This document shows, piece by piece, positions 13,011-31,980 of a DNA stretch of 64,000 nucleotides (position 1 is its first letter; each line of letters starts with the position of its first letter). The position numbers were made by a program, and so were the translations under genes. Source of the stretch: a bacterium (GTDB lineage: Bacteria; Patescibacteriota; Minisyncoccia; Phycocordibacterales; UBA9973); assembly GCA_037127795.1 (NCBI GenBank), contig JBAXXQ010000001.1:405198-469197 (forward strand), read 5' to 3'. The notes beneath the pieces were generated by a model, which was not told where the DNA came from, did no database searches, and saw only the letters and a list, made by a program, of their open reading frames with translations.

Positions 13011-15182
13011 ATGAATACCGGCACAAACTACACTGTTCCTGAAAAGCTTTTACAAGCATACGCACCAGACAAAGAAGAATCGCGCATATATGACATATGG
13101 GAAAAATCAGGGTATTTTACCCCTGAAAATATGATTGCTGCAGGATACACAAAACCTGACGCAAAGCCATACACTATCATCCTCCCTCCTCCCAATGTGA
13201 CAGGTACCCTCCACATGGGCCATGCATTGATGGTGACCGTCCAAGATATTCTCATCCGCTACAAACGTATGTCTGGCTATCGTACTCTCTGGCTCCCCGG
13301 GACAGACCATGCTGCCATTGCAACACAATCAAAAGTAGAAAAAGAAATCCAAAAGAAAGAAGGTAAAAGTCGCTATGATCTCGGTCGCGAAGAATTACTT
13401 ACTCGTATCAATACTTTTGCTACACAAAGTCACGATACTATTGTGAGCCAAATGAAAGCAGTCGGCGCAAGTCTCGACTGGTCTCGTGAAGCATTTACTC
13501 TCGATGCAAAACGCAACCTCGCAGTAAATACTATTTTCAAAAAAATGTATGACGAAGGGCTTATCTATCGTGGGCACCGTATCGTAAACTGGGACCCTAA
13601 AGGACAAACCACTATTTCAGATGATGAGATAGTATATGAGGAAGAAAAAACTACATTCTATTATTTTAAATATGGACCATTTACTATTGGTACTGCTCGC
13701 CCAGAAACAAAATTCGGAGATAAGTATGTAGTAATGCATCCAGCAGATAAGAGATATACAGAATATACCCATGGTCAACAAATTGAGCTTGAATGGATTA
13801 ATGGACCACTCACCGCAACAATAATAAAAGACGAAGCTATTGATATGGAATTTGGTACAGGTGTTATGACTATTACCCCGTGGCACTCTTTGGTTGACTT
13901 TGAAATTGCTGAACGGCACGGACTTGATAAGGAACAAATCATTGACCAATACAGCAAACTACTCCCTATAGCTGGAGAATTTGCAGGAATGAAAATAAAA
14001 GACGCTCGAGAAAAAATTGTTGAAAAGCTTCGCGCAAAAGGACTTGTAGAAAAAGAGGAAGCTTATGTTCATAATATTGCAACAGCAGAACGTACTGGTG
14101 GTATTATCGAACCTCAAATAAAATTGCAATGGTTCATCAATGTAAACTTGCCCATTGTAGAGCGTGGTAACAAAACTCTCAAAGAGCTCATGCGTAAACC
14201 AGTCGCAGATGGTGCTATACGTATCGTGCCAGATTATTTTGGTAAAACGTATTTTCACTGGATTGATAACCTCAAAGACTGGTGCATCTCTCGCCAAATT
14301 TGGTACGGACACCGTGTCCCTGTATGGTACAAAGATCAAGAAATATATTGTGGTATCAATGCACCCGAGGGGGCAGATTGGAAACAAGATGAAGATACAC
14401 TTGATACATGGTTTTCTTCTGCATTGTGGACATTCTCTACACTCGGCTGGCCAGATATGACAGAGGATCTCAAAATATACCATCCTACCGATGTACTCGA
14501 GACAGGGTATGAAATTCTTTTCTTCTGGGTAGCTCGTATGATACTCATGACACAATACGCGCTTGGCGATATTCCCTTCAAAACTATATACCTCCATGGT
14601 ACTGTTCGCGATGGTCAAGGCCGCAAGATGAGTAAGTCTCTCGGTAATGGTATCGACCCTATAGAAATTGCACAAAAATACGGCTCAGATGCCGGACGTA
14701 TGGCACTTATTATTGGTACTGCTGCAGGGACAGATAGTAAGATTTCAGAAGACAAAATCAAAGGACAAAAACACTTTGCGAATAAGCTTTGGAATATCAC
14801 TCGTTTCGTTTTGACCAATTACAATGAAGCACAATCTAGTACTCCATTTACAGATGCAGATCAAAAACTTCTCGATGAATGGACTACTGTCGCAAAAGAA
14901 ATCGGCACAGCAATAGATGAATACAAGCTTCACATTGCCGCAGAATCTGTATACCAATATATCTGGAGTGTATTTGCAGACAAGATTCTCGAAGAAAGTA
15001 AGCCGCTTCTACAAAGTGAAGATATAGCTATCAAACATTCTCGTAGTCGTCTCTTATATACACTCCTTGTTGGTAATCTCAAACTCCTCCATCCGTTTAT
15101 GCCTTTTGTGACTGAAGCGATCTGGGAAGTATTACCAGAAAAAGAATCACCACTCATCATGGTTGCGACATGGCCGCAATAA
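13011..15182 (+). CDS. valS: Valyl-tRNA synthetase, short form without a long C-terminal coiled coil
   Basis: PPPNVTGTLHMGHAL (HIGH region), RTLWLPGTDHAAIATQ, and KMSKSLGN (KMSKS). The ValRS anticodon-binding region follows. Confidence 0.85.
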   Translation: MNTGTNYTVPEKLLQAYAPDKEESRIYDIWEKSGYFTPENMIAAGYTKPDAKPYTIILPPPNVTGTLHMGHALMVTVQDILIRYKRMSGYRTLWLPGTDHAAIATQSKVEKEIQKKEGKSRYDLGREELLTRINTFATQSHDTIVSQMKAVGASLDWSREAFTLDAKRNLAVNTIFKKMYDEGLIYRGHRIVNWDPKGQTTISDDEIVYEEEKTTFYYFKYGPFTIGTARPETKFGDKYVVMHPADKRYTEYTHGQQIELEWINGPLTATIIKDEAIDMEFGTGVMTITPWHSLVDFEIAERHGLDKEQIIDQYSKLLPIAGEFAGMKIKDAREKIVEKLRAKGLVEKEEAYVHNIATAERTGGIIEPQIKLQWFINVNLPIVERGNKTLKELMRKPVADGAIRIVPDYFGKTYFHWIDNLKDWCISRQIWYGHRVPVWYKDQEIYCGINAPEGADWKQDEDTLDTWFSSALWTFSTLGWPDMTEDLKIYHPTDVLETGYEILFFWVARMILMTQYALGDIPFKTIYLHGTVRDGQGRKMSKSLGNGIDPIEIAQKYGSDAGRMALIIGTAAGTDSKISEDKIKGQKHFANKLWNITRFVLTNYNEAQSSTPFTDADQKLLDEWTTVAKEIGTAIDEYKLHIAAESVYQYIWSVFADKILEESKPLLQSEDIAIKHSRSRLLYTLLVGNLKLLHPFMPFVTEAIWEVLPEKESPLIMVATWPQ

Positions 15183-16446: not shown

Positions 16447-17226
16447 TTAAAGAACAACTTCGCAAGGACCGTAATAAGAATCTTGTCTATCACGAAAGTT
16501 TCGGTAGATACGGAACCTGCCATCAACATTCCTGCACATCCCCATAGCATCATCCCAAATATTGAGAGCATGAAACCCAATAAAAGATCGTATTACTTCA
16601 CCTGTTTCTACGCGATAGCGAAGTGCTGAGATAATACCTTCAATAGGTGTCATAAAATGTAAAGGTTCTTTTGAAAAAACATTATATGATTTTCCTAAAT
16701 GCTCAGCATCAGGACCTTGTCCACCCCTGTGTAATATAAGACGATTGTCTGTAATTCTGGTTTGCTGGGTTTTAATACAATCATGAATAATATGGTAATA
16801 TTCGCTCACACTGTCTTTTCCAAAAATTTCTACATATTTATTATATATATCATCTTCGGTAAAGCAGTTTGGTATGTATTCCAAAATATTAAAACCTTCT
16901 TTTTCTTCCGGAAGTGTGAGCTTGCTCCAATCAATATCATGATTGAAATACTTTTTCCAAAAAATTGAAAGTTTTTCTTGTTGCCTGTCCCAAACAGTAA
17001 TTAATATATGAGTTGTCTCATCAACTACCGCAGATGCAATTTCTTTAGCGCGACCCTTTCCAGGACCTGTCAAAAGTTGCTGCATTTGTTTTTTAGAAAA
17101 ACCACGTTGTCCCATTTTTTCAACTACTGATTGGGCAATCAGGAGGCCAAATTGTGCATATTGTGCACCTGTAGCCACTTCTTTTTCTAGACTCATTCTT
17201 GAGAATAATTTTGTTTTAAAGAGCAA
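16447..17226 (-). CDS. Hypothetical protein, immediately outside the integrative element
   Basis: 259-aa ORF with an upstream sigma70-like promoter. No motif recognised. Confidence 0.4.
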   Translation of the reverse strand: MLFKTKLFSRMSLEKEVATGAQYAQFGLLIAQSVVEKMGQRGFSKKQMQQLLTGPGKGRAKEIASAVVDETTHILITVWDRQQEKLSIFWKKYFNHDIDWSKLTLPEEKEGFNILEYIPNCFTEDDIYNKYVEIFGKDSVSEYYHIIHDCIKTQQTRITDNRLILHRGGQGPDAEHLGKSYNVFSKEPLHFMTPIEGIISALRYRVETGEVIRSFIGFHALNIWDDAMGMCRNVDGRFRIYRNFRDRQDSYYGPCEVVL

Positions 17227-17270: not shown

Positions 17271-17322
17271 AGTATATATAGTCTATATAAGAAAAACACC
17301 TTCATTTCGAAGGCGTTTTTCT

Positions 17323-17392
17323 TTTGTGCTTGAGACCAGACTTGAACTGGTGACATCTCCCTCTTCAGGGGAGCGCTCTACCAACTGAGCTA
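17323..17392 (-). repeat. 70-nt direct repeat: partial copy of the tRNA-Phe 3' portion (attR-like end of the integrated element)
   Basis: Identical to 25320..25389. Here the 5' acceptor arm is replaced by non-complementary sequence (GCTCAGA vs the required GCTTGAG), so this copy is not a functional tRNA. Confidence 0.8.
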
Positions 17393-17576
17393 TCTGAGCG
17401 TTGGTATTTCCTTTATTATGCAATGTATTTTAATGATTTAGAGCCTATAATCCCCTTTTTGCCCTAAGCCTGTTTACATCCTGAAAAACCTTTATCTATT
17501 ACAATAATGTTTTCTAATAAACGACTTTGTAATAATATCAAATTTATATAAAATAATCAATTTACCGTATGTTTTT

Positions 17577-19061
17577 TTAAATTTCAGTATTAGCTGGTAT
17601 AAATTCCTTAACTTGAATGCTAATTTTAGGATAAACAAGTGACATTATAAATAAGGTTTTATTAACAATATCCAACATATCTTCTGTTACAGAATTCATT
17701 AAAGGAAATTGATATAAAGGTAGCCTGTGGAACCTATGCAACGGATTATAACATTTTTGATATACAGACTCTCTTATAGCCAACCAATTGGCATGAACAA
17801 AAGATGATGTATACGCATAATACTTATCATACATATTTTTTTCTCCAATATATTCGCATATTTTTCTTAGATCAAGAGAATCCCAATGTCCTAAATTAAT
17901 AGGAATAAATTCAACCCATACATCTTCATTTGCAATTTGTTCTATTTTTTCCTTATTAATACTAAAGCTTTTTAAATTACCCTCTTCAAATTTACGATAA
18001 ATTAAATTAGCTTGACCTGAACCATAAGAACGATACTCACTCCATATTTCTGGATTCTCAAATTCTTTTTTTATTAAATATGCTAATGTTGCGTAAGTTT
18101 CAAACAATATTCGGAGCATTACCCTGCCATTAATTGATAATCCTGTTTTATACATATTATTTTCAATAAATATTGTAAGAGCATACATAGTAAGACCAAA
18201 AACTGCTTCATGTTTTGGGTCAACAGCCGAAGTTGTAGATGTTTCTATAGAATGGTCAATGAGTTCATTCCACACTTTTTGGGTTTCTTTATAATAATGA
18301 TCATGACTTTTTGTAATTTCATTCTCTAAACCTTTATATTTAACATTTTTTTCACCTTCTATACTGTCCTCAGAAATACAACCTGTAAAATTATATGAAT
18401 AGTTCCAAAAATCCATAGCCCAAGTATTCATACTAATACCTGGTATTTGCATAATCTCTGCAGCTCTAATCATAGGCCTAACCTTTCTTTGATCCCCTTT
18501 GTTCGGATAATTTAAAATTTCAGACAACATATCTGGTGGAACATGCATTTTACCACTATTAATTGCAGCTGTTAGCTTAAGCCATCTACAATCTGTAGCT
18601 TTTTGAGATTGATGCCATAAACAATCTTGTACAGCATTACCTAGTGTAGACCAATCCTTAATCGGAACGGGTTTTTTATTTATTACATCTTCCCATTCCT
18701 TAATAAAAGGAAGATTTGGAAAAAGTAAAATTGGACGCAAAAGAGTACATATATCTTCTTTGGCATAAGAACAAATATGTGTTATAAATGCGATACGATC
18801 TAATTCAGAAAATTTTGAAATACCAGAAATTGTTATATCGAATAAATCTTTTTTATTAAGAGTAAATTCTAAACAATACCTAAAAAAGGCCAAAGCATCC
18901 TCTCTTTCTAATTGAGATATAATTAATACAGCCCACAATATTTCTGGAAGCCTATCATCTATCCATGAAGCTTTAGTCATTCCTATTTGAGCTAGTGGTG
19001 GGGTCAGCTTTTTACCTTCTTTTTTATATTTACTTAGCTCAGTTTCGTTTTTACCTTTCAT
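17577..19061 (-). CDS. Hypothetical 494-aa protein (element cargo)
   Basis: Long AT-rich ORF inside the element. Predicted helical, no catalytic motif recognised by eye. Co-oriented with, and 10 nt downstream of, the small basic protein gene. Confidence 0.45.
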   Translation of the reverse strand: MKGKNETELSKYKKEGKKLTPPLAQIGMTKASWIDDRLPEILWAVLIISQLEREDALAFFRYCLEFTLNKKDLFDITISGISKFSELDRIAFITHICSYAKEDICTLLRPILLFPNLPFIKEWEDVINKKPVPIKDWSTLGNAVQDCLWHQSQKATDCRWLKLTAAINSGKMHVPPDMLSEILNYPNKGDQRKVRPMIRAAEIMQIPGISMNTWAMDFWNYSYNFTGCISEDSIEGEKNVKYKGLENEITKSHDHYYKETQKVWNELIDHSIETSTTSAVDPKHEAVFGLTMYALTIFIENNMYKTGLSINGRVMLRILFETYATLAYLIKKEFENPEIWSEYRSYGSGQANLIYRKFEEGNLKSFSINKEKIEQIANEDVWVEFIPINLGHWDSLDLRKICEYIGEKNMYDKYYAYTSSFVHANWLAIRESVYQKCYNPLHRFHRLPLYQFPLMNSVTEDMLDIVNKTLFIMSLVYPKISIQVKEFIPANTEI

Positions 19062-19071
19062 ATTAATATTT

Positions 19072-19389
19072 TCATCTTACCTTCTCTCTTTCTTGAGCAA
19101 GTGCTTTTAATGAAAATACTGGTTTAATAGTCATATCCATAGTATCTTTTGGTCTTCCCCAAGCACGATCTGACAACCATTTACGGGCCTCAGGATCGCC
19201 ATTTTTAGCCTGCTCAATAGCTTTATCTACAATTGGTCCAAACTCAGTAAAAAGCTTTAATGCGAGCAATTCACGTGCTTTTTCATGCTCAAGTGCAGCA
19301 ACACCTTTTTTTCTTCCAGCACCTATTCGTTTGCCACCTCGTTGTATTTCCATGTTAATATTATACCATAAAAAGTGCTTGTTTACCAA
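19072..19389 (-). CDS. Small basic putative DNA-binding protein (possible excisionase/regulator of the element)
   Basis: Lys/Arg-rich N-terminus (GGKRIGAGRKKG), ~100 aa, first gene of a minus-strand pair in the element. The function is inferred from context only. Confidence 0.3.
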   Translation of the reverse strand: MVNKHFLWYNINMEIQRGGKRIGAGRKKGVAALEHEKARELLALKLFTEFGPIVDKAIEQAKNGDPEARKWLSDRAWGRPKDTMDMTIKPVFSLKALAQEREKVR

Positions 19390-19441
19390 TTTGAATTATT
19401 GATTGATATCAAAAATATTAGTGTATTAATTAGTATTAAAT

Positions 19442-20740
19442 ATGGTATTATCAAATAATATGGAACATATAAACTATGTAGAGATTTTAAAGAAAAAACT
19501 TCAGTCTCTCTTTGAAAAAGAAGACTGGAGTGAGAAAGATTTTTCTGAGGTTTTTTATGCTACTGACTCAAAAATTCAGGTCATTTGGATTTTAAATGAT
19601 TGGGTAAAAGACGGAAAATATATTGAAGAGTCTATGAGGGTCGCTGAGATATTAAAAAATGATCGGGACCCTATTATAAATAGTGAAGAAGATAAAAATG
19701 CCAAAGATGGTAAAGATATAAATTTTATTCATACAGTAAGAGGATCTCTTCCTTATTTACTAGAAAAGATCACTGCAAGTTTAAAAACTGAATACTATAC
19801 ACGCATATTAGATGTTACAGAAGATTTATTAAATGACAAAAATATTTACGTAAGAGCTCACGCTGTAACAGCGTTACTAAGTCTTTCTTATAATGTTTAT
19901 GCAACTAATCGTAACGATGGAACACCTTTTAATTTTGAAGATAGAGAGCGTGTTAGAGTGCTTGCCTTGAGGGTATTAAATGAAAATCATGTATACCCTA
20001 GAGTTTTAGAATTCGTAACAAGAGTTTTTGATAGATTACGCAGACTTAACGAGAACGATGCTAAAGTTTTTTTTGATTACTTACTTTATAAAAATATCGA
20101 AGAAAAAACATATAACCCTGATTATGTTTTAGAAAATGTAGCTCCTTTGTTGATATATTACGCTGAATTTCGTATAAAAATAAAAGACAATTTCAATGAT
20201 ACTTTCTTTAAAGAACTACTTATTTCTGTAATTAAAACAGCTCCTCCTAGATTAAAATCAACACTTGTCTGGCATATTTGGAAAGTTATAGAGGAAGATG
20301 CTTCTTGTTTAGGGGCTTTTGAAAAATATATAGATATTATTTTTGAAGGTGATTTTCAAAAAGAAACAGTTGGACAGTTGGAAATCTTAATGGAAAAAGT
20401 GTTTTCTATAGATCAAAACTTAGGAATTATAATATTTAAAAAATACATAAATTATATTGAAAAAAGGCAAACAAACGAAATGTTATGGCTTTTAAGTGTT
20501 CAAGATTTTTTACCTAAGATCGCAGATTTTGATGCTGATATTTTTTTAGAATCTTTAAAATCTCTTGTAGGTATATGGAGAAAAGGAAATGCTTATATTG
20601 GTGATTATAAAAATCTATTTAATTCGTTTACTTATATAAAAGAAAAAACTAAAAGAGAGCTAGTAAGGTATGAGGTTTTAAAAATCTTTTCTGAGATGCA
20701 TAAAATTAAGTCTGAGGTACTTGAAAGTTATGAAGATTGA
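19442..20740 (+). CDS. Hypothetical 432-aa alpha-helical (HEAT/ARM-like) protein (element cargo)
   Basis: Repeated helical segments with HEAT-like strings (YVRAHAVTALLSLS). Its last 20 nt overlap the next ORF, which suggests translational coupling. Confidence 0.4.
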   Translation: MVLSNNMEHINYVEILKKKLQSLFEKEDWSEKDFSEVFYATDSKIQVIWILNDWVKDGKYIEESMRVAEILKNDRDPIINSEEDKNAKDGKDINFIHTVRGSLPYLLEKITASLKTEYYTRILDVTEDLLNDKNIYVRAHAVTALLSLSYNVYATNRNDGTPFNFEDRERVRVLALRVLNENHVYPRVLEFVTRVFDRLRRLNENDAKVFFDYLLYKNIEEKTYNPDYVLENVAPLLIYYAEFRIKIKDNFNDTFFKELLISVIKTAPPRLKSTLVWHIWKVIEEDASCLGAFEKYIDIIFEGDFQKETVGQLEILMEKVFSIDQNLGIIIFKKYINYIEKRQTNEMLWLLSVQDFLPKIADFDADIFLESLKSLVGIWRKGNAYIGDYKNLFNSFTYIKEKTKRELVRYEVLKIFSEMHKIKSEVLESYED

Positions 20741-21305
20741 TGAATATAGAGATCTTATCGTGGAGTGTAAGAGAAGCTTAGAATCTTCGGAGCGTCTTTT
20801 TAAAGATGTCTTTGTTTCCTCTGTTATTACGAGTAACGGGATTGTTGCCTTGAGTCAGGATAATTTAGAAAGAAATAAAAAGATGCGATATATGGCGGTT
20901 GCATTGATATGTATCGAATGGGAATCTTTGAGATCTCAAATACATCATTCTGATCAAAGTAAGCATCATAAATTTTGTATTAAAGTATATAAAGGGGATA
21001 ATGCATGGGGCACAACAAAGAGTTTGAGGGAGTTGGGTATTTTAAGAGATTGTATTATGCACCATGGTGGAGAAATATTTAGATATACAGAGTGGATGAA
21101 GCGTAAAAGAGGTGTAATTGTAGTAATAGACAAAAAATATGAAGATCCTAAAACAAAGAAACTATCTTTTACAGATGAGCATCTTTTTTATTTTTTTAAA
21201 TTAATTAAAGAAGATAGTTTGGATCATATCTTTACTAGAATAGAAAACCATATTGAGAAAAATAACCCACCAGTTTCAATCCTTAAAAGACTTAGATTAT
21301 TTTAA
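20721..21305 (+). CDS. Hypothetical 194-aa protein (element cargo), overlapping the upstream ORF
   Basis: ORF in operon arrangement with 19442..20740. No motif recognised. Confidence 0.4.
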   Translation: MKVMKIDEYRDLIVECKRSLESSERLFKDVFVSSVITSNGIVALSQDNLERNKKMRYMAVALICIEWESLRSQIHHSDQSKHHKFCIKVYKGDNAWGTTKSLRELGILRDCIMHHGGEIFRYTEWMKRKRGVIVVIDKKYEDPKTKKLSFTDEHLFYFFKLIKEDSLDHIFTRIENHIEKNNPPVSILKRLRLF

Positions 21306-21661
21306 TATTTAGTTCCGATAAAATAGGCTACTAATAAGGTTCCGTATATAGCTATATACGGGTATATGTTTTTAATAAAACTAGATCCAAAAATAAGAAA
21401 AAGAAAGGAGTATAAGAATAGTTCTATTATGATTTCTTTATTCCATTTACTGTGTTGTCCAACTGTAAATGCAATATAAAAATACAGTGCCAAACCAATT
21501 ATAAAACTAATCCAAATAATATTAGGAGAAAAAATATTTGATATGGTCTGAATTAAGATTGAGCTTAGGATTATAATCGAGCTCCACATTATCCATCTCA
21601 AATTAGTTATTTGAATTTCTTTTTGTTCTAATTGGTGATGTAAAAAATCTTCTTTGTCCAT
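21302..21661 (-). CDS. Small membrane protein (three predicted TM helices)
   Basis: Hydrophobic stretches IIILSSILIQTISNIF, ISFIIGLALYFYIAF and LFLYSFLFLIFGSSFI. Confidence 0.35.
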   Translation of the reverse strand: MDKEDFLHHQLEQKEIQITNLRWIMWSSIIILSSILIQTISNIFSPNIIWISFIIGLALYFYIAFTVGQHSKWNKEIIIELFLYSFLFLIFGSSFIKNIYPYIAIYGTLLVAYFIGTKY

Positions 21662-21667
21662 ACCTAT

Positions 21668-21904
21668 TTACTGTTGTTTTCGTATTACTTTATAGATCCA
21701 AATAGCCCCAGATATAATTCCAGCATAAAATACTGGCGGCATAATAAGTCCAATAAGAAGGCATGCACCAGCTGTATTCCTATATTCTTCACGAGTCATT
21801 TTTTTAAATTTCCACCAATCTTTTTTAGATATATCACCAAATCCAGTTTTTTCTAGTATAGGCGAAGGTGATATTTTAAATGATTTAATTTTGTCTTTTT
21901 CCAT
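21668..21904 (-). CDS. Small membrane protein
   Basis: C-terminal TM helix (ACLLIGLIMPPVFYAGIISGAIWIY). Start taken at MEKDKIK. The longer ORF-track start overlaps an AT-rich leader. Confidence 0.3.
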   Translation of the reverse strand: MEKDKIKSFKISPSPILEKTGFGDISKKDWWKFKKMTREEYRNTAGACLLIGLIMPPVFYAGIISGAIWIYKVIRKQQ

Positions 21905-22255
21905 AGGTTTTTTTTGCAAAAATGATAATTCCATAGAGTGGAACACAAAAAGCCCACCACATGGAGTGAGGGTTTTAAGGCCCTCCATACTCGTTTCCAA
22001 GTATGGCCTGCAAAGACAAATCCCCATCTGATGGGTTCTTTATGTCTTTGCAGGACGATTTTTTCACCATGCCGCTGATTGCTCAAGGGTTTAGGCTACT
22101 TATTACTATTTAGTTGTACATCTAGAATATCACATGTGCTAAAAGATATCCACAGGTATAGATGCTTGCCCAAAAATGGCAGTGCGTTATGATTGGATCA
22201 CACGATTATATCGCCCAATAAAAGTATGGTTTCTGATTGAAATATATTCGAACGT

Positions 22256-22335
22256 AAAGATAAAATTAGAAGATAAAACTAAAAGATAAAAATGCAGACA
22301 AAAATAGATAATATTACAAACCTAAATAAGATAAA
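22256..22335 (+). repeat. Iteron-like direct repeats (AAGATAAAA x5), part of the putative origin of replication of the element
   Basis: aaagataaaat / gaagataaaac / aaagataaaaa at a 13-bp pitch (22256, 22269, 22282), then atagataat (22303) and aagataaac (22327). Confidence 0.5.
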
Positions 22336-22349
22336 CATCTACATACAGA

Positions 22350-22431
22350 ATTCCTGAACGTTCTAAAGTAAGCCTACTGCTTACTTGGTGGGTCGTCTTT
22401 TGACGTTCAGGAACCTACTAAGTAAATAGTA
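22350..22431 (+). repeat. Nested inverted repeats immediately upstream of the Prim-Pol gene (putative ori/operator)
   Basis: Outer stem ttcctgaacgt/acgttcaggaa (11 bp). It encloses an inner hairpin aagtaagc-ctact-gcttactt. A third hairpin ctacta-agtaaa-tagtag follows. Confidence 0.5.
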
Positions 22432-22451
22432 GACTTTGTCTTCATTCAAAT

Positions 22452-24251
22452 ATGAATAAAACAAATCTTGATGAAGCTATTAAATTAAGCGAACTGAACT
22501 GGAGTATTATACCAATAGGAAACAATAAAAAACCTCTCGTAAAATGGAAAGAATTTCAAGAAAGACTAGCAACTAAAGAAGAAATAACATCTTGGTTTAA
22601 AAGATGGCCAAATGCAAATATTGCTGTTGTTACAGGTAAAATATCAAACGTTATTGTTTTTGATATAGACGCAAAACACGGTAGAGAAATAAGAGAATTC
22701 CAAATACCGCCTACAATTATCTCAAAAACTGGAGGTGGTGGTAATCATATATTCTTTAAATACCCCGATCGACATGTCCCGAATTCAAATGGTACTCTTT
22801 TTGGAGAAGGAATAGATATTAAAGGGGATGATGGGTATGCAATAGTACCTTATTCATCTCATAAATCTGGTAATTTTTATGAATGGGTTGAAATGTGTTC
22901 TCCGTTTGATATAGAACCAATAGATGTCCCAAACTGGCTGTACAATAAATTATTTGAAAATAATAATTCTGACAGTAAAACAAAATTATGGGAAAAAGAA
23001 ACATCTGATGTATTAGAAGGTACAAGAAACCAAACAGCAGCATCTGTAGCTGGTAAGATAATAAATACAATTCGAGAAGAAAATATACCTATCATTGGAT
23101 GGAACATGTTTAAGGATTGGAATAAAAATATTCCATCCCCTCTTCCCGAAAAGGAATTAAGAAGTACCTGGGAGAGTATCGGAAAATACCATACAACTAA
23201 TGGAGAGGAATCTAAGCCTCTTCTTGAAAAAATTAATATTACATCATGGAAACAATTCTCAAAAAAAGATTTTTCTGAAGTAAGCTGGCGTATACAGAAC
23301 CTTATACCTATGGAGGGTTTTGTTATATTATCTGCAATTTCAGGAGAAAAGAAGACATGGGTTTCTCTTGAGATGGCAAAATGTATTGCTGAAGGTATAA
23401 ACTTTTTAGGGACCGAGCTCTTTAAAACTGAACAAGGAAAAATACTCTATATTGATCAAGAAAACCCTGAACGAGACATTGTTCGAAGAGGTAAACAGCT
23501 TGGATTCAAAGAGAATGAAAATTTCTATATTTATAGACCAAACTCTTTAAACTTAAACGATGAAAAAATTGTTAAAGAATTATTAAGTAAAATTAAAGAA
23601 AACAATATTAATGTTGTCTTCATAGATACATTCCGAGCAGTTGCAGGAGGACTCAAAGAAGATAAGGCTGAAGATGTTCGCATGTTTTTTAACCGTTTTA
23701 AAATACTAAAAGATAGTGGTGTTGTAATCGTATGGCTCGATCATCGAAGAAAACCTGCCAACTTTGAAGGAAAAGTGCCTAAAAAAGAACAATTACTGGG
23801 TAGCCAAGACAAGACAGCTAGTGTTGAAATACTACTCCAACTATCAAGTGAATCTGGAAGTAACGAAATACGTGTATTTCAAGCAAAGAATCGCCTAGAT
23901 AGAGAGATAAATGCTTTTAAAATAGCTATGGTTGATAAAGATAACGAAGATGGGACAAGAACTACAGATTTAATTTATGATGGTGAGATTGATGAAGATG
24001 AGACAAAAAAGAATGAAGCAAAAGAGTATATATTGGAATTATTAGGATCGGGAGGTAAAACAACAAAAGAAATAAAAAATACTGTTTCAACACAGAGAAA
24101 AATTGGCGAGAAGAACATAAGACTTGCACTAGGTGAACTTGTTGATAGCGAGCAAATCGATTATTCTAAAAAAGGGCGCAGTCATTTCTATTTTATTAAA
24201 GAAACATCATCTTTAGAAGAATCAGAAATAATGAGTTTGGACGATCTCTAA
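22452..24251 (+). CDS. Replication initiation protein: N-terminal bifunctional primase-polymerase (Prim-Pol) domain fused to a RepA/AAA_25-like helicase-loader domain
   Basis: Prim-Pol motifs: WSIIPIGNNKKPLVKWKEF, the DxD motif IVFDIDAKHG, and GGGNHIFFKYP. The C-terminal half has a RecA-like ATPase pattern (ILSAISGEKKTWVSLEMAKCIAEG ... VVFIDTFRAV ... WLDHRRK), typical of plasmid/phage RepA or AAA_25. Confidence 0.7.
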   Translation: MNKTNLDEAIKLSELNWSIIPIGNNKKPLVKWKEFQERLATKEEITSWFKRWPNANIAVVTGKISNVIVFDIDAKHGREIREFQIPPTIISKTGGGGNHIFFKYPDRHVPNSNGTLFGEGIDIKGDDGYAIVPYSSHKSGNFYEWVEMCSPFDIEPIDVPNWLYNKLFENNNSDSKTKLWEKETSDVLEGTRNQTAASVAGKIINTIREENIPIIGWNMFKDWNKNIPSPLPEKELRSTWESIGKYHTTNGEESKPLLEKINITSWKQFSKKDFSEVSWRIQNLIPMEGFVILSAISGEKKTWVSLEMAKCIAEGINFLGTELFKTEQGKILYIDQENPERDIVRRGKQLGFKENENFYIYRPNSLNLNDEKIVKELLSKIKENNINVVFIDTFRAVAGGLKEDKAEDVRMFFNRFKILKDSGVVIVWLDHRRKPANFEGKVPKKEQLLGSQDKTASVEILLQLSSESGSNEIRVFQAKNRLDREINAFKIAMVDKDNEDGTRTTDLIYDGEIDEDETKKNEAKEYILELLGSGGKTTKEIKNTVSTQRKIGEKNIRLALGELVDSEQIDYSKKGRSHFYFIKETSSLEESEIMSLDDL

Positions 24252-24321
24252 AAGCTAACTATTAATGTATTACCAAATTACCACGATAGTGTTCTATATC
24301 ATGGCAATTTGGTAATTATTA

Positions 24322-25278
24322 TTAAGTATTCAATGGATGTTTAGCCATTTGCCCACGTAAGTGCTCTGCGCTCGCATATAAATATATAGTCGTGGTCTTG
24401 ATATCTGCGTGGCCGAGCATTTTCCCTAAAGAATAGATATCTACTCCCCCTTCAAGCATTAACGTTGCAAACGTATGTCTAAGCTTGTGGGCTGTAAAGA
24501 ATATCCCAGAGGATGTCCGTATTTTCTCAATAAGGTTTTTAAGCCCTGTTTGCGTAAAACCAAGATTATGATTAAGTGACGTAAAGAACTCCGGGCATGT
24601 CTTATGGAGCCTGTGACGCTCTTCTAGATACCGTATAAGGCTCTGTGCGAGCGTTTGCGACATAGGAACTACACGATCCTTATTCCCCTTCCCTTGCCTA
24701 ATAAATATGGAAAAATTCTCTATATCTACGTCCATTAATTTAAGCTTCAAAAGCTCTTGTTTTCGCAACCCTGCATGAATGAACATAGAAAATATCGCAT
24801 GGTTCCTATACCGTAAAAATCTATACTTATATGGATAATTATAGACAACCTCAAGTAGTCGCTGTGTATCATACTGTGTTAATTTTGGCGGTAGCTTTTT
24901 ATGAAGCTTTGGTACTTCAATATCCTGTACCGGATTCTTTTGTATATATCCTTCCTTAATACACCAGCGGAAAAATACCAAGAGTGACTTATGGTAATGT
25001 AAAAAAGTATTCGGACTCCAATTGCGCTCAGTCCTACCGTTATAAAAGAAGTTTCGTATAGAATCCTCAGTTACTTGAGTGATATCTCTCGTATGTGTTG
25101 AATTTGAATAAAAGGTAACAACTTGCCTATATCTCTTGATGGTAACCTTCGAGAAACCTTTTATAGATAAAGAATGATCACAAAACTTCTCACATAAAAA
25201 TAATATATCCATGTTTTTTGTGTAAAGAGAAAGATCTTTTAGGATAGCCCGTAAGCTGTTTACACAAGGGAGAGACAA
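24322..25278 (-). CDS. Tyrosine recombinase/integrase
   Basis: C-terminal catalytic region HKLRHTFATLMLEGGVDIYSLGKMLGHADIKTTTIYLY shows the R..H-x-x-R...Y signature. Lies adjacent to the tRNA-Phe att site. Confidence 0.85.
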   Translation of the reverse strand: MSLPCVNSLRAILKDLSLYTKNMDILFLCEKFCDHSLSIKGFSKVTIKRYRQVVTFYSNSTHTRDITQVTEDSIRNFFYNGRTERNWSPNTFLHYHKSLLVFFRWCIKEGYIQKNPVQDIEVPKLHKKLPPKLTQYDTQRLLEVVYNYPYKYRFLRYRNHAIFSMFIHAGLRKQELLKLKLMDVDIENFSIFIRQGKGNKDRVVPMSQTLAQSLIRYLEERHRLHKTCPEFFTSLNHNLGFTQTGLKNLIEKIRTSSGIFFTAHKLRHTFATLMLEGGVDIYSLGKMLGHADIKTTTIYLYASAEHLRGQMAKHPLNT

Positions 25279-25323
25279 AAAAAATACCTCATTATCAAAA
25301 ATAGATTGATAATAAAGGATGTT

Positions 25324-25396
25324 GTGCTTGAGACCAGACTTGAACTGGTGACATCTCCCTCTTCAGGGGAGCGCTCTACCAACTGAGCTACTCAAG
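25324..25396 (-). tRNA. tRNA-Phe(GAA), intact copy reconstituted at the attL-like end
   Basis: Acceptor GCTTGAG/CTCAAGC (perfect), D-arm GCTC-AGTTGGTA-GAGC, anticodon arm CTCCC-CTGAAGA-GGGAG (anticodon GAA), T-arm ACCAG-TTCAAGT-CTGGT, discriminator A. Confidence 0.85.
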
Positions 25397-25454
25397 CAAT
25401 ACCATTTGGTACATATTTTATACACGAAAAAAGACTTTTTTGCAAATAGGAAAT

Positions 25455-26835: not shown

Positions 26836-26907
26836 GTGCCTCCAGTACGAATCGAACGTGCAATTACTCCTTAGGACGGAGTCGTTATATCCATTTAACT
26901 ATGGGGG
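26836..26907 (-). tRNA. tRNA-Arg(CCT)
   Basis: Reverse complement reads GCCCCCA-TA-GTTA-AATGGATA-TAAC-G-ACTCC-GTCCTAA-GGAGT-..-TTCGATT-..-TGGAGGC-A, giving anticodon CCT. There is one C-A mismatch in the acceptor stem and one in the T stem, so confidence is reduced. Confidence 0.6.
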
Positions 26908-26929
26908 CTATAGCCCCGTAAGGCATATA

Positions 26930-29607: not shown

Positions 29608-31980
29608 CTACAGTGATGAATCTTTTTTTAGATGGTATTTTTCAAAACCAGAAACTAAAATAGTATCGTATCTCGTAAGATTAAAACTTTTTTGATCTTT
29701 GATACCAGATAACATACTGTTGTTCAACATAAGAGCTGATTTAAAACCATCTTTCTCACTAACCACTGAGTTAGATATTGCTTCTTTTTGAAAAAGCACA
29801 CTATCTTTCGAGATTTCTTTTCGAGCCTCATCTGATATTGGAGCAATCAGTTTTATTTTTTCACCAACTTTTTTAACTTTTGCTTTTGCTAAAAAATCTG
29901 GATGAACACCAACAACTTCATTATCCCAAATTTTAACCTTAAAACTTGCCAATTCTTCACCTAACATACCAACAATAACTAAACCGTCATCTTGATTTAT
30001 TAGTGAATTTAAAGAAATAAGAGCATCTGTGTCTACATTAGCAATCTTTTGTTTAGCTTCTTTTCTAGTTTTAGCTAAGCTTTCTAATATAGGCTGTTTT
30101 TGATCAAGATAATCTTCGTATTCACCTACCTTTCGTTCGCGCAACAATTCAGTACTAATAGGTAATTCAAAAATTTTCAATGCAATACGGGCAGGTAAGA
30201 ATATTTCGTATGGATACAAATCCACAGAAGGTACTACTACACTTACACCTGTATATGCACATTTTTTTGTAAATAAGCACTTTACCGTCTCTTGATACAT
30301 CTTATCGAGAGATTTACAAAAAATCTTTCCATCTACAACAATCGCTTTGTCATATTGGGTTTTTGTATTAGAAAAAAGTGACCGTACAGCTGACACTAAC
30401 ATACAATACTCATTAACAAGTATTACTATTGGAGCTTTAATTTCCAAAAGTCTTTTAAATCGGTTGTTACGAATAATAATCCTACGATATAAGACATCAA
30501 TTGTCGACATACTATAAGTACCATCTTTTTCTTTTCCCAACATCCTAAAACCAGCAGGTATTACAAGTACATTTTCTAAAAAAACAGTTCCCTCAAAAGG
30601 TGCACATTGCTTTAATACACCTATTACAGATATATTATTTTTCGGATAAAACACCTCTCTAAACAATGAATCCAATTCCACACTACATTCAAGATTTTTA
30701 GCGCTAAAAAACTCTTTAAATAATTTTTGAAAATTAACACTTGTTTCATCTTGAAAAATAGGATTTGGTACAGGTACTGCCAAAGCAATATGACCAAAAC
30801 TACGGCGAAATATATCCTGTTTTTTTTCAGTGCCAAAAATCTTTTCACAAAATAATCCATTTTCTGAAAATTTTGTACAAGCTTTGTCACTAAAATAATC
30901 TGGAGTAGTAACCTCACCTTTTGATAAAGCTAATATTTCAGCTGTAGTTATTTTTGATACACGTAAATACGGTTTTTCTCCCTTAATAATCTCTGGTAGA
31001 AACCCCATACCCTGTAATAAACAAAAGCTATCCTCTAAAGAAACCCCTTCATCTGAACCAATAGTAATCCATTCAGAAACACTTTTTTCCAAACCTTTTT
31101 CTACTGCCTTTTGAATAAAAGTCTCCTTTAAAAGAACACCCTCATCTAATTGCATATTGTTTTTGAAAAATAACCCAGACATACCTACAGATTGACTTTT
31201 TGCTTCTACTAGGCCGGGCTGAATGTTGAATTTGAAAAAATCTACATACGCCTTTTCTTTAGTATCAACCCAATATGATCTGCCATTTTTATGCTCTCTA
31301 ACAGAAAGAAGAATCCTATCGTCTTTTTTGTTTTTAATAATATTTCTAAAATTCTCTTTTTCGGTTTTTTCCTCAGAAAGAATAGAAGATGTTACTACTA
31401 TTGAACAATAAATTTGTGGATCTTCTTCAAGCACAGGCATTTCTTTTTCACGAAGAATACCAGCCACAAGAAATTTTTGTTCTTCACAAAAAATAGTATC
31501 ACCAATAGAAAGATTACGTTTAATCAATAAGTAAATAGAAATTTTATTATCTACTCGCTCTGTCGATACTACGGTTGCCTTATCATAAAACCCCATAGAA
31601 ACTCCGGTATTTTCGATTATCTGACCGAAAACATTTTCCACCAGTCTTTCCTTAGAATTTTTTGGTTCAATTTTTTTAACTTTTGCAACCAGTAAATCAC
31701 CACAAGAAACCTCTGTACCAACATTAATAATACTGTCAGTACTACGTGCTTTGAAAAAATTTAAATCTTTTTCACTAATACGAGGCAGATTATTATCTAG
31801 CCATTCATCAGTTTCAAGTAAGATATCAACCTTTTCAACAATTGCTGTTTCAAAATATTTTTTATCAACAACTTTTTGGCTTACAAAAGCCATGTTTGGA
31901 GTATTGATGCCACCCCAAGAAGGCATAACAGTGGTAAGTAATCCTTTACTTACGGTGTCAGAAATTTTTCTTACGTTCAT
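29608..31980 (-). CDS. Degenerate RNA polymerase beta(C-terminal)/beta'(N-terminal)-like fusion protein lacking catalytic motifs
   Basis: Residues ~90-180 align with the RpoB C-terminal region (GDLLVAKVKKIEP..ERLVENVFGQ ~ GDILVGKVTPKGE..LLRAIFGEKA; ISIYLLIKRNLSIGD..EKEMP ~ VKVYLAVKRRIQPGD..IEDMP). GRHGNKG is replaced by CEEQKFLVAG. Residues ~360-640 align with the RpoC N-terminus (ENGLFCEKIFG ~ RDGLFCARIFG; RRSFGHIALAVPVPNPIF ~ RRERMGHIELASPTAHIWF; STIDVLYRRIIIRNNRFKRLLEIKAPIVILVNEYCML ~ [38 protein letters not shown]). No zinc-finger cysteines. No NADFDGD. Confidence 0.6.
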   Translation of the reverse strand: MNVRKISDTVSKGLLTTVMPSWGGINTPNMAFVSQKVVDKKYFETAIVEKVDILLETDEWLDNNLPRISEKDLNFFKARSTDSIINVGTEVSCGDLLVAKVKKIEPKNSKERLVENVFGQIIENTGVSMGFYDKATVVSTERVDNKISIYLLIKRNLSIGDTIFCEEQKFLVAGILREKEMPVLEEDPQIYCSIVVTSSILSEEKTEKENFRNIIKNKKDDRILLSVREHKNGRSYWVDTKEKAYVDFFKFNIQPGLVEAKSQSVGMSGLFFKNNMQLDEGVLLKETFIQKAVEKGLEKSVSEWITIGSDEGVSLEDSFCLLQGMGFLPEIIKGEKPYLRVSKITTAEILALSKGEVTTPDYFSDKACTKFSENGLFCEKIFGTEKKQDIFRRSFGHIALAVPVPNPIFQDETSVNFQKLFKEFFSAKNLECSVELDSLFREVFYPKNNISVIGVLKQCAPFEGTVFLENVLVIPAGFRMLGKEKDGTYSMSTIDVLYRRIIIRNNRFKRLLEIKAPIVILVNEYCMLVSAVRSLFSNTKTQYDKAIVVDGKIFCKSLDKMYQETVKCLFTKKCAYTGVSVVVPSVDLYPYEIFLPARIALKIFELPISTELLRERKVGEYEDYLDQKQPILESLAKTRKEAKQKIANVDTDALISLNSLINQDDGLVIVGMLGEELASFKVKIWDNEVVGVHPDFLAKAKVKKVGEKIKLIAPISDEARKEISKDSVLFQKEAISNSVVSEKDGFKSALMLNNSMLSGIKDQKSFNLTRYDTILVSGFEKYHLKKDSSL

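Follow-up and report, generated by a model that had tools for sequence, protein, structure and literature searches.

What is the block of DNA that lies between two copies of one tRNA-Phe sequence in a patescibacterial chromosome, and how did it come to be there? Patescibacteria (CPR) get by with very small genomes and rely on other cells; to our knowledge, their mobile elements are poorly described. The window analyzed here, to which all coordinates refer (Table 1), is a stretch of 64,000 nucleotides. Taken as a whole, the block is very probably a 7,998-bp site-specific integrative element in the single tRNA-Phe(GAA) locus of a patescibacterial (Paceibacteria/Nomurabacteria-like) genome, one that would replicate once excised and that carries defence-like cargo. 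It also contains a LOOT RNA.

Table 1. Features of the element and its borders (window coordinates)
Feature	Position	Strand	Basis or remark
Host-side hairpin with T/A runs, just outside attR	17299..17313	.	terminator-like site
attR: displaced pseudo-tRNA, left 69-nt copy	17324..17392	-	repeat search; Rfam 52.7 bits
Element-borne heterologous 5' acceptor arm GCTCAGA	17393..17399	-	comparison with tRNA-Phe of two other Patescibacteria (L006, L023)
DitA homologue, 494 aa, DUF5677 domain	17577..19061	-	PADLOC DitA PDLC03826; Pfam DUF5677 E=1e-17
Small basic protein, 93-105 aa	19072..19389	-	ORF and gene call; directly upstream of DitA, same operon
ARM/HEAT-like alpha-solenoid protein, 432 aa	19442..20740	+	AF2 model; homologue search
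194-aa protein with RDCIMH (Rx4H) motif	20721..21305	+	overlaps solenoid gene
Multi-pass membrane protein, 119 aa	21302..21661	-	ORF and gene call; second gene downstream of LOOT
Small protein with C-terminal membrane helix	21668..21904	-	78 aa from internal ATG; first gene downstream of LOOT
LOOT RNA (Rfam RF03000, 21968-22097) with conserved 3' extension GGUGGGCUUUUUG	21945..22097	-	Rfam covariance model
Non-coding region, LOOT to replicase	22100..22451	.	AAAGATAAAA-type repeats at 22139-22148 and 22256-22291
Replicase: Prim-Pol, PriCT_1, AAA_25 (RepA-like helicase), wHTH	22452..24251	+	Pfam; PHROGs primase/polymerase families
20-nt inverted repeat, 90% complementary	24269..24316	.	between convergent replicase and integrase genes
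Xer-like tyrosine integrase	24322..25278	-	Pfam Phage_integrase and SAM-like domains; phrog_1 integrase E=3e-51
attL: right copy (25322-25390) within intact tRNA-Phe(GAA) gene (25324-25397)	25322..25397	-	ARAGORN; repeat search; Rfam

The tRNA-Phe junctions and the empty site

The block is bordered by an exact direct repeat whose copies lie 7,998 bp apart, start to start, and are flanked by differing bases on both sides; a 26-mer derived from it occurs exactly twice in the window, against zero expected (100 shuffles). The original prediction placed an exact repeat of about 70 nt at 17323..17392 and 25320..25389. The exact repeat is real, but a repeat search of the window sets its length at 69 nt and its second copy 2 nt away from the predicted place. 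As predicted, it starts at position 8 of tRNA-Phe(GAA), but it ends 3 nt beyond the discriminator base rather than 4 nt past the 3' end; CCA is not encoded. ARAGORN calls the right copy as part of a complete gene whose acceptor stem pairs (GCTTGAG/CTCAAGC), in agreement with its proposed standing as the functional tRNA, although the gene extends to 25397, not 25396. The left copy receives no ARAGORN tRNA call and scores below the intact gene with the Rfam tRNA model (52.7 bits, over 17327-17399, against 70.8). Its 5' arm, GCTCAGA, does not pair with CTCAAGC, as the prediction of a displaced copy had it, but neither is that arm a random sequence: the tRNA-Phe genes of other Patescibacteria have exactly this 5' acceptor arm (GCTCAGA/TCTGAGC in two of them). 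Thus, the attP of the element carries a whole, or almost complete, tRNA-Phe-like sequence. The hairpin on the host side of attR is, by its sequence, the presumptive original bidirectional terminator downstream of tRNA-Phe, and the layout of caaaagaaaaa and a hairpin also stands 3' of tRNA-Phe in two relatives (L015, L018).

A 58-mer of the tRNA-Phe matches 21 GTDB species representatives, all of them labelled Patescibacteria. The gene order IleRS-PrsW-HSP20-tRNA-Phe-hyp89-(hyp124)-LepA is kept in those loci that extend far enough on both sides (tblastn), and homologues of the integrase, the replicase and the DitA protein are found by tblastn in none of the 21 related tRNA-Phe loci. With the flanking order kept and nothing inserted in the relatives, the block is an insertion; the uninterrupted tRNA-Phe locus that had been predicted for related genomes is what they contain. 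The Logan assembly of SRR12676973 is identical to window positions 17366-25351 (0 mismatches), and at each end it breaks off within the repeat. This independent assembly establishes that the interior is not the artefact of one assembler. The GC content of the element (0.28-0.34) is lower than that of its immediate flanks (0.38-0.41), as had been predicted of an A+T-rich interior, but other stretches of the window are equally A+T-rich, so that composition is by itself weak evidence.

The junctions suggest how the locus would have been assembled. The Xer-like integrase would have recombined the attP of the element, with its almost complete tRNA-Phe sequence, and the chromosomal tRNA-Phe gene. 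At attL, the host 5' arm and the remaining tRNA would then constitute the working gene; at attR, the pseudo-tRNA at 17327-17399 would result from joining the foreign 5' arm of the element to the body of the tRNA and the terminator of the host.

Integrase, replicase and cargo

The tyrosine integrase predicted beside the tRNA is confirmed by Pfam, PHROGs and NCBIfam; it faces inward and lies on the same strand as tRNA-Phe, 45 nt away. (The NCBI gene call has 296 aa, starting at 25212.) Its six catalytic residues (R, K, HxxR, H, Y) all align with those of XerD and XerA, which are its closest solved relatives, and Pfam has no match on the N-terminal side of its SAM-like core-binding domain. A chromosomal XerC/XerD/XerA resolvase it is not: its scores lie below the NCBIfam cut-offs (175 against 329.6 bits for XerD and 184.5 against 220 for XerA). 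Nor does a Xer of chromosome dimer resolution suit a gene that 21 relatives lack at this locus and whose homologues adjoin tRNAs with variable cargo. Mean column identity in the family is 78% in an alignment of 23 of the top homologues, out of 2,877 found, an unusual degree of conservation that could also reflect partial domestication; IMG/VR holds no relative of the integrase above about 35% identity.

Sister elements place this integrase in a family. On a 720-kb scaffold, a 70% identical integrase directly follows tRNA-Phe and is itself followed by LOOT and a diversity-generating retroelement, the whole being closed by a second complete tRNA-Phe 7,859 bp away. Integrases of 68-69% identity directly follow tRNA-Lys, one of them accompanied by LOOT and Schlafen/PIN cargo. 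That sites of one kind hold different cargo argues for recent activity of the family, whose attachment sites appear to be whole tRNA genes. What the analysis shows is both junctions, an intact integrase, relatives whose site is empty, and sisters at two targets, tRNA-Phe and tRNA-Lys.

The replicase gene is directly beside that of the integrase, and the inverted repeat between the two is likely to be their shared terminator, as its sequence and placement suggest. Pfam, PHROGs and NCBIfam bear out the predicted Prim-Pol/helicase replication protein. Its DxD and GGGxH motifs show no variation among homologues, and neither do Walker A Lys301 and Walker B Asp392. Those homologues reside in small islands, together with LOOT, serine recombinases and cargo of the restriction-modification or toxin-antitoxin kind. 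The non-coding region upstream of the replicase gene is a putative replication origin: it holds an iteron-like array (13-nt period, 2.8 copies, at 22256-22291), which is short, and an 11-nt inverted repeat (22351-22361 and 22403-22413). The region of iterons and inverted repeats in the original prediction is therefore found in part, but the most structured stretch, at 21968-22097, is the LOOT gene. Promoter-like sites are no more frequent than in shuffles. Once excised, the 8-kb circle would replicate from this repeat-bearing region.

The cargo looks like anti-phage defence. The DitA match covers model positions 3-474 of 486 at E=2.4e-74 (PADLOC); DitB is matched by none of the eight main ORFs at E<=0.01 and, in the same collection, by none of four of the cargo ORFs at E<=10. 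The small basic protein encoded just upstream, a possible DitA partner, has a weak phrog_15261 match and homologues in two LOOT loci, and has no PADLOC match of any kind even at E<=10. The solenoid protein (188 homologues; AF2 pLDDT 93.4) has only generic armadillo/importin proteins as structure matches, with TM about 0.3. A 38% identical homologue lies in an element at tRNA-Lys (L159), and the gene that follows it there aligns pairwise with the 194-aa protein at E=5e-9, with the motif conserved; the indexed search returns no homologues of the 194-aa protein. The L159 counterpart has a sub-threshold HEPN_RiboL-PSP match, which together with the motif makes the 194-aa protein a putative HEPN-like partner of the solenoid, in a gene pair that recurs in L159. 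Through phage defence, two sets of genes would pay for the keep of the element: the DitA homologue plus the small protein encoded upstream of it, and the solenoid plus its HEPN-like partner. The hydrophobic segments of the 119-aa membrane protein are read straight from its sequence, and it matches no family in Pfam, PHROGs, PADLOC or NCBIfam. Its 78-aa neighbour is called as 106 aa in Logan; the start codon is uncertain because the longer readings overlap LOOT.

As predicted, capsid, terminase and tail genes have no PHROGs or Pfam family match in the element, and the lack of structural or packaging matches in these collections speaks against a complete prophage. Transfer and packaging families, FtsK/Tra-like translocases included, are absent from the element ORFs in Pfam, PHROGs and NCBIfam, and no excisionase or recombination directionality factor is recognized among them. 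The layout of tRNA and integrase, the displaced copy, the replicase and the absence of virion genes all support the original view of an integrative plasmid- or satellite-like element. It would behave as an integrative plasmid or tycheposon, neither phage nor conjugative.

The LOOT RNA

LOOT is an sRNA-type motif from metagenomes, and we know of no function or host assigned to it. Its covariation has been remarked on (PMC7657543). The element's match to the LOOT motif (Rfam RF03000; Weinberg et al. 2017, PMC5737381) in sequence and structure is well above the gathering score (76.0 against 46.4 bits) and spans the full model length (1-121); the folding z-score is -4.15, and a terminator-like site lies at 21970-21953. 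What differs from the motif as known is its place inside mobile elements, a same-orientation gene downstream and the 3' extension, which is kept across loci. Most well-flanked LOOT loci are mobile-element contexts, and some LOOT contigs carry a large terminase subunit and serine recombinases in a prophage-like arrangement.

In the element, LOOT would head a short operon of the two small membrane proteins and act on it as a leader or small-RNA regulator. A more general proposal, which we hold tentatively and at somewhat below even chances, is that LOOT is a dedicated mobile-element RNA of patescibacterial phages and integrative elements: a leader near the promoter, or a small RNA, whose 3' end is itself terminator-like, situated at the boundary between a maintenance module and a highly variable accessory operon, and controlling that operon. 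The element in the window would then be a rare carrier, with a Xer-like tyrosine integrase and a whole tRNA-Phe attP. On the same proposal, the maintenance module may be a recombinase or a replicase, usually on the opposite strand, and control could be exerted by attenuation or antitermination, or by an immunity-type RNA analogous to the CI RNA of phage P4.

Rival readings and known systems

The size and layout of the element (integrase, primase-helicase, defence-like cargo and no virion genes) would also suit a phage satellite of the PICI or P4 kind. Such a satellite stays integrated until a helper phage of the same host infects; it then leaves the chromosome, is copied by its own primase-helicase and travels in the capsids of the helper, to which LOOT would be the regulatory or hijacking link. 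The prophage-like LOOT contigs and a relative of the replicase (L005) that has a P4 cII-like gene beside LOOT point in this direction. A satellite is nevertheless unlikely: small terminase, capsid, head-size redirection, packaging-site and phage-sensing regulator families are not detected in Pfam, PHROGs, PADLOC or NCBIfam, with some latitude for the small ORFs of no known family; IMG/VR holds no closer kin of the integrase than already noted; and no helper phage is identified. The notion of a fixed, immobile genomic island, an old insertion whose genes now belong to the host and whose repeat is kept identical by gene conversion, draws on the missing excisionase, on the absence of the attP junction pattern from IMG/VR, and on the extra non-conserved genes beside the site (hyp259), which suggest that leftovers accumulate there; the union of a foreign 5' arm with a host-identical remainder at attR could likewise reflect homogenization between copies. 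We regard it as distinctly improbable in view of the identical 69-nt repeats, the intact frames and conserved catalytic motifs of integrase and replicase, the occurrence of the block in 0 of 21 related species, and the sister elements, whose sites are alike and whose cargo differs. It is scarcely credible that assembly or binning joined a plasmid or a foreign contig to the chromosome by way of a tRNA sequence common to both. Both ends of the same-sample Logan contig fall within the repeat, which makes the short-read graph ambiguous there, but the junctions are those that site-specific integration would generate (host promoter side to integrase side, foreign arm to host-type terminator), and integrated sister elements of the same layout occur in independent assemblies, the 720-kb scaffold among them. 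Even a free molecule would, moreover, be this very element, excised.

Read as an integrative, replicating and defence-carrying element, the locus is a cleanly bounded example of a family of small integrative elements with defence-type cargo and a replicase of their own: its att sites are exact, the site is empty in relatives, and sisters occur at tRNA-Phe and tRNA-Lys. Movement between lineages has left a visible trace in the foreign 5' acceptor arm. LOOT now has a concrete genomic setting in which its function becomes testable for the first time, and the alpha-solenoid and HEPN-like pair is a candidate defence module that recurs in related elements.

The accepted workings of tRNA-targeting islands are left unchanged. 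Like the tRNA-gene islands of Islander (PMC4383910), the element has its integrase beside a regenerated tRNA and a displaced tRNA repeat at the far end, and is absent from relatives; it differs in an unusually long identity block (69 of about 73 nt, and the whole tRNA in sister L152), in carrying a 5' acceptor arm, and in its short, Xer-like two-domain integrase of about 296 aa. Actinomycete-type integrative conjugative elements (AICEs, about 9-17 kb) also occupy tRNA genes and replicate autonomously after excision, but no FtsK/Tra-like DNA translocase or other conjugation function is found here in Pfam or PHROGs, and replicase type and host differ as well. The full-length DitA homologue recalls the Aditi system (Millman et al., bioRxiv 10.1101/2022.05.11.491447), which has two proteins; in place of a detected DitB, the element has the unrelated 93-105-aa protein in the neighbouring position. 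[quoted passage not shown] Tycheposon cargo serves adaptation or phage interference; of such cargo, the element has a DitA homologue (with DitB not detected) and other, putative, genes. It differs from tycheposons in its patescibacterial host, in the presence of LOOT and in relatives that switch between tyrosine and large serine recombinases, and the likeness drawn here is one of layout. It is a tRNA-targeting integrative element of ordinary mechanism, probably self-replicating and tycheposon-like.

The tRNA-Phe attachment site and its surroundings

A repeat search of 15-28 kb of the window yields a single long exact direct repeat of 69 nt, its copies 7,998 bp apart from start to start; a 26-mer of it occurs exactly twice in the window, with none expected in shuffles. 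The bases flanking the repeat differ between the copies on both sides. The repeat is thus 69 nt long, not 70 nt as in the original prediction, and its second copy starts at 25322, not 25320. It runs from tRNA position 8 to 3 nt beyond the discriminator base. What had been said of the tRNA copies themselves stands: the right repeat copy (attL) lies in an intact tRNA-Phe(GAA), called by ARAGORN with a paired acceptor stem (GCTTGAG/CTCAAGC), and the left copy (attR), for which ARAGORN makes no call, has a non-complementary 5' arm. Because that arm, GCTCAGA, is unable to pair with CTCAAGC, the left copy has the lower Rfam tRNA score (52.7 bits vs 70.8 bits for the intact gene).

Identity of the two copies implies that attP and attB each held the same 69 nt. 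The junctions are modeled as GATTGATAATAAAGGATG + 69-nt repeat + TCTGAGCGTTGGTATTTCCT (attP) and ATTTCGAAGGCGTTTTTCTT + 69-nt repeat + CTCAAGCAATACCATTTGGT (attB). The attP junction finds no match among IMG/VR viral contigs, and the window holds no further degenerate tRNA-Phe fragment of the kind that an older att site would leave. Logan, an independent assembly of run SRR12676973, reproduces window 17366-25351 without mismatch. The notion that this 7,986-bp contig is a circle was rejected: both of its ends break within the repeat, as for a k-mer graph break. The contig confirms the interior sequence of the element and is silent on a circular form.

A 58-nt core of the tRNA-Phe is found in 21 GTDB species representatives, labeled Nomurabacteria, Paceibacteria/Paceibacterota, Patescibacteria or 'Saccharibacteria' with one exception ('uncultured bacterium'). 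Searching with the window's flanking proteins (tblastn) shows a conserved order, IleRS-PrsW-HSP20-tRNA-Phe-hyp89-(hyp124)-LepA (hyp89 and hyp124 are hypothetical proteins), at these related loci, whose LepA is 66-78% identical to that of the window. The check proposed with the original prediction, that relatives should have an uninterrupted tRNA-Phe, comes out in its favor: tblastn detects homologues of the integrase, the replicase and the DitA-like protein at none of the 21 loci. In several of them no more than about 50 nt separate the tRNA-Phe from HSP20, and the hairpin with T/A runs that borders the left repeat copy on its outer side is of the same type as one found 3' of tRNA-Phe in relatives. 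The comparison supports the reading that insertion took place at the 3' side of tRNA-Phe.

The 5' arm of the left copy is foreign to the host. The element side of this copy runs on into GCTCAGA, exactly the tRNA-Phe 5' acceptor arm at two relatives' loci, L006 and L023 (stem GCTCAGA/TCTGAGC); the host acceptor stem is unique among 22 genomes. In L152, a sister element with a related integrase, the distal copy is a complete tRNA. Together, the GCTCAGA arm and this complete distal tRNA argue that the family carries a near-full-length tRNA-Phe as its attP, which would then be essentially the whole tRNA. On the simplest reading, the 3' part supplied by the element would have to match the host, so that the one tRNA-Phe visible stays functional, and the element's own 5' arm, never part of a working tRNA, would persist as a vestige of a different lineage.

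Between HSP20 and the left repeat lies a 259-aa ORF that has no family match and is absent from 21/21 relatives, some of which have 0.5-1.4 kb of other material at its spot, marking the downstream side of the tRNA as a variable hot spot. The ORF may have been left behind by a previous insertion at this tRNA, although a search for an older tRNA fragment found none. On the other side, relatives do not conserve a pair of ORFs, of 121 and 189 aa, that lies between tRNA-Arg(CCU) and hyp89; L099, one of the LOOT loci discussed below, encodes a homologue 50% identical to the 121-aa product. No tRNA-Arg fragment repeat was found flanking these variable genes at 25.8-26.8 kb. Farther out, a 790-aa protein in a low-G+C stretch adjoining lepA has weak Pfam matches to RNA polymerase beta (Rpb2 domain 6, aa 20-186) and beta-prime (Rpb1 domain 1, aa 467-558); these suggest a two-barrel RNA-polymerase-like fusion protein, as known from some prophages (YonO-like). 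The 946-aa leucyl-tRNA synthetase has an apparent alpha/beta-hydrolase domain inserted at aa 249-355, and an isoleucyl-type class I synthetase ORF is just 723 aa long, ending 13 nt within the next gene (PrsW), a layout common to relatives.

Genes of the element

Features of the element and its surroundings
Feature	Coordinates	Strand	Remarks
Isoleucyl-type class I tRNA synthetase ORF	13011-15182	plus	
259-aa ORF	16447-17226	minus	
Left repeat copy (attR)	17324-17392		69 nt
Overlapping gene pair	19442-21305	plus	432-aa and 194-aa proteins
LOOT RNA (Rfam RF03000)	21968-22097	minus	76 bits vs threshold 46.4
LOOT RNA with 3' extension	21945-22097	minus	
Two small membrane proteins		minus	3' of LOOT, same strand as LOOT
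Gene pair		minus	93-105-aa basic protein, then 494-aa DitA homologue
Non-coding region			about 350 nt; three to five AAAGATAAAA-type repeats, 11-nt inverted repeat
Replicase	22452-24251	plus	Prim-Pol, PriCT_1, AAA_25, wHTH domain
20-nt inverted repeat	24269-24316		between convergent integrase and replicase genes
Integrase	24322-25278	minus	Phage_integrase, SAM-like domains
Right repeat copy (attL)	25322-25390		69 nt
tRNA-Phe(GAA)	25324-25397	minus	
Two ORFs, 121 and 189 aa	25817-26800		
tRNA-Arg(CCU)	26836-26908		
790-aa protein	29608-31980	minus	
Leucyl-tRNA synthetase	36004-38844	minus	

The gene content bears out the original prediction of a tyrosine integrase abutting the tRNA, a Prim-Pol/helicase replication protein, and no capsid, terminase or tail genes. 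The solved structures closest to the integrase are archaeal XerA and E. coli XerD, with which all six catalytic residues align. Its best scores are likewise to XerA/XerD/XerC models, but they fall well under the cut-offs; since the gene is also absent from this locus in the 21 relatives and its homologues sit in mobile contexts, a housekeeping Xer of the host is rejected. Homologues number 2,877 at E<=1e-20, the top ones 65-79% identical (mean column identity is 78% in an alignment of 23 of these). IMG/VR holds no close relatives of either integrase or replicase, and a profile search there retrieves integrases only 25-36% identical to the window's. Owing to the choice of start codon, the ORF-tool forms of the integrase and of one flanking gene have no exact-protein record; the replicase has one, on a 580,599-bp contig of an NCBI MAG. 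In the replicase, primase motifs and Walker A and B residues do not vary among homologues. Among the element's genes, no capsid, terminase, tail, relaxase or FtsK/Tra-like families were detected, and GenBank phages and PLSDB plasmids contain no near-identical DNA beyond a tRNA match. A promoter scan was uninformative (43 sites vs 41.7 expected).

Two gene pairs are candidate cargo. The 494-aa protein matches almost the whole of the PADLOC DitA model (E=2.4e-74), as well as Pfam DUF5677. In DefenseFinder/PADLOC naming, DitA belongs to the two-gene Aditi system; no match to DitB was found among the element's ORFs searched. Aditi has been described as two proteins of unknown function (bioRxiv 10.1101/2022.05.11.491447).

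The 432-aa protein has 188 homologues and is predicted to be an all-helical solenoid (pLDDT 93) with only generic armadillo/HEAT likeness; its longer homologues offer no Pfam or PADLOC clue. Its 194-aa partner is without homologues in the indexed search, and a single-sequence model of it is unusable (pLDDT 40). The sister element L159, at tRNA-Lys, has a solenoid gene with 38% identity and, next in order, a gene for a 164-aa protein. This protein resembles the 194-aa one (pairwise E=5e-9) in the region of a conserved R-x-C-I-x-H motif and matches HEPN_RiboL-PSP below threshold. The solenoid and R-x-C-I-x-H genes, which occur together at different tRNAs in two elements whose integrases are related (10943-13809 in L159), are read as a probable conserved two-gene accessory module, possibly a HEPN-type defence or abortive-infection pair. 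The L159 module has an additional 362-aa gene upstream.

The LOOT RNA and the sister elements

The structured RNA LOOT also lies beside replicase homologues (L003/L004, L005) and in the sister elements L152 and L157. A three-block pattern built from these copies finds one contig in IMG/VR, a phage fragment with a large terminase, and at least 120 loci in JGI/ENA metagenomes; 20/20 of those re-checked pass the Rfam threshold, at 68-97 bits. Among the matches listed, the gene 3' of LOOT is co-oriented in 107/110 loci at a median gap of 72 nt, and in 72/107 the upstream gene is on the other strand. Of the 121 loci listed, 53 have a large serine recombinase; by BLAST clustering of these matches it is the immediate upstream neighbour in 23, and in many of the 23 its start is on the other strand, 160-290 nt away from LOOT. 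Terminases occur in 7 listed loci and PrimPol-helicases in 6; hallmark genes are found in 15/18 listed loci with >=3 kb on each side and in 30/42 of those >=8 kb long. The downstream genes are extremely diverse, and many of their products are apparently secreted or surface-located (staphylococcal-type nucleases, subtilases, trypsin-like proteases and peptidoglycan-binding proteins, for example).

Outside the Rfam model, a conserved G-rich segment and U tract (GGUGGGCUUUUUG) follow LOOT on its 3' side. Among the matches listed, this extension is present in 89/110 loci vs 32% of control windows; in the window it scores as terminator-like. Single-sequence folding predicts an alternative long-range helix between a conserved AUAAAGAAC inside LOOT and GCUUUUUGU of the extension. 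We conclude that mobile elements carry LOOT at the head of variable accessory operons, where it may act either as a leader or as an independent small RNA. The element's tyrosine integrase family is found in 0/121 of the metagenome and viral LOOT loci listed; in using it, the window's element is an unusual LOOT carrier.

Homologues of the replicase (41-54% identity) are located in small islands of other genomes, where they neighbour large serine recombinases; restriction-modification or toxin-antitoxin genes are the cargo, and one abuts tRNA-Leu. In the sister elements L152/L153, the order is tRNA-Phe, integrase, LOOT, cargo with a diversity-generating retroelement, and a second complete tRNA-Phe, with an 83-nt repeat (98% identity) at a spacing of 7,859 bp. 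The retroelement (L152 15517-17499, and also in L153) comprises bAvd, a reverse transcriptase and a 98-nt template/variable repeat pair, which in L152 differs mainly at template adenines. In L157 and L159 the integrase lies directly 3' of tRNA-Lys(UUU), and L157 has Schlafen/PIN-type genes along with LOOT. Two further loci, L148 and L161, lack a tRNA and resemble mobile elements, with genes for TrwB, relaxase or type IV secretion. These contexts, and the distance of the IMG/VR integrases, point to a non-viral family of integrative elements whose cargo is exchangeable; across the wider set of relatives, so are the recombinases.

Comparison with known systems

The element is real, and its original interpretation is supported; what is added is the Patescibacteria host, a family of sister elements, a whole-tRNA attP with a foreign arm, and the placing of an orphan RNA, LOOT, in mobile elements. 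It is neither an AICE, having no transfer gene, nor a prophage, nor, as far as the evidence goes, a recognisable phage satellite. Mechanistically, it is a classical tRNA-targeting island. Its organisation matches that of the tycheposons (bioRxiv 10.1101/2020.12.28.424599): an inward-facing integrase beside a tRNA, an adjoining small replication module, cargo that may be adaptive or anti-phage, leftovers piling up beside the tRNA, and a streamlined host genome.
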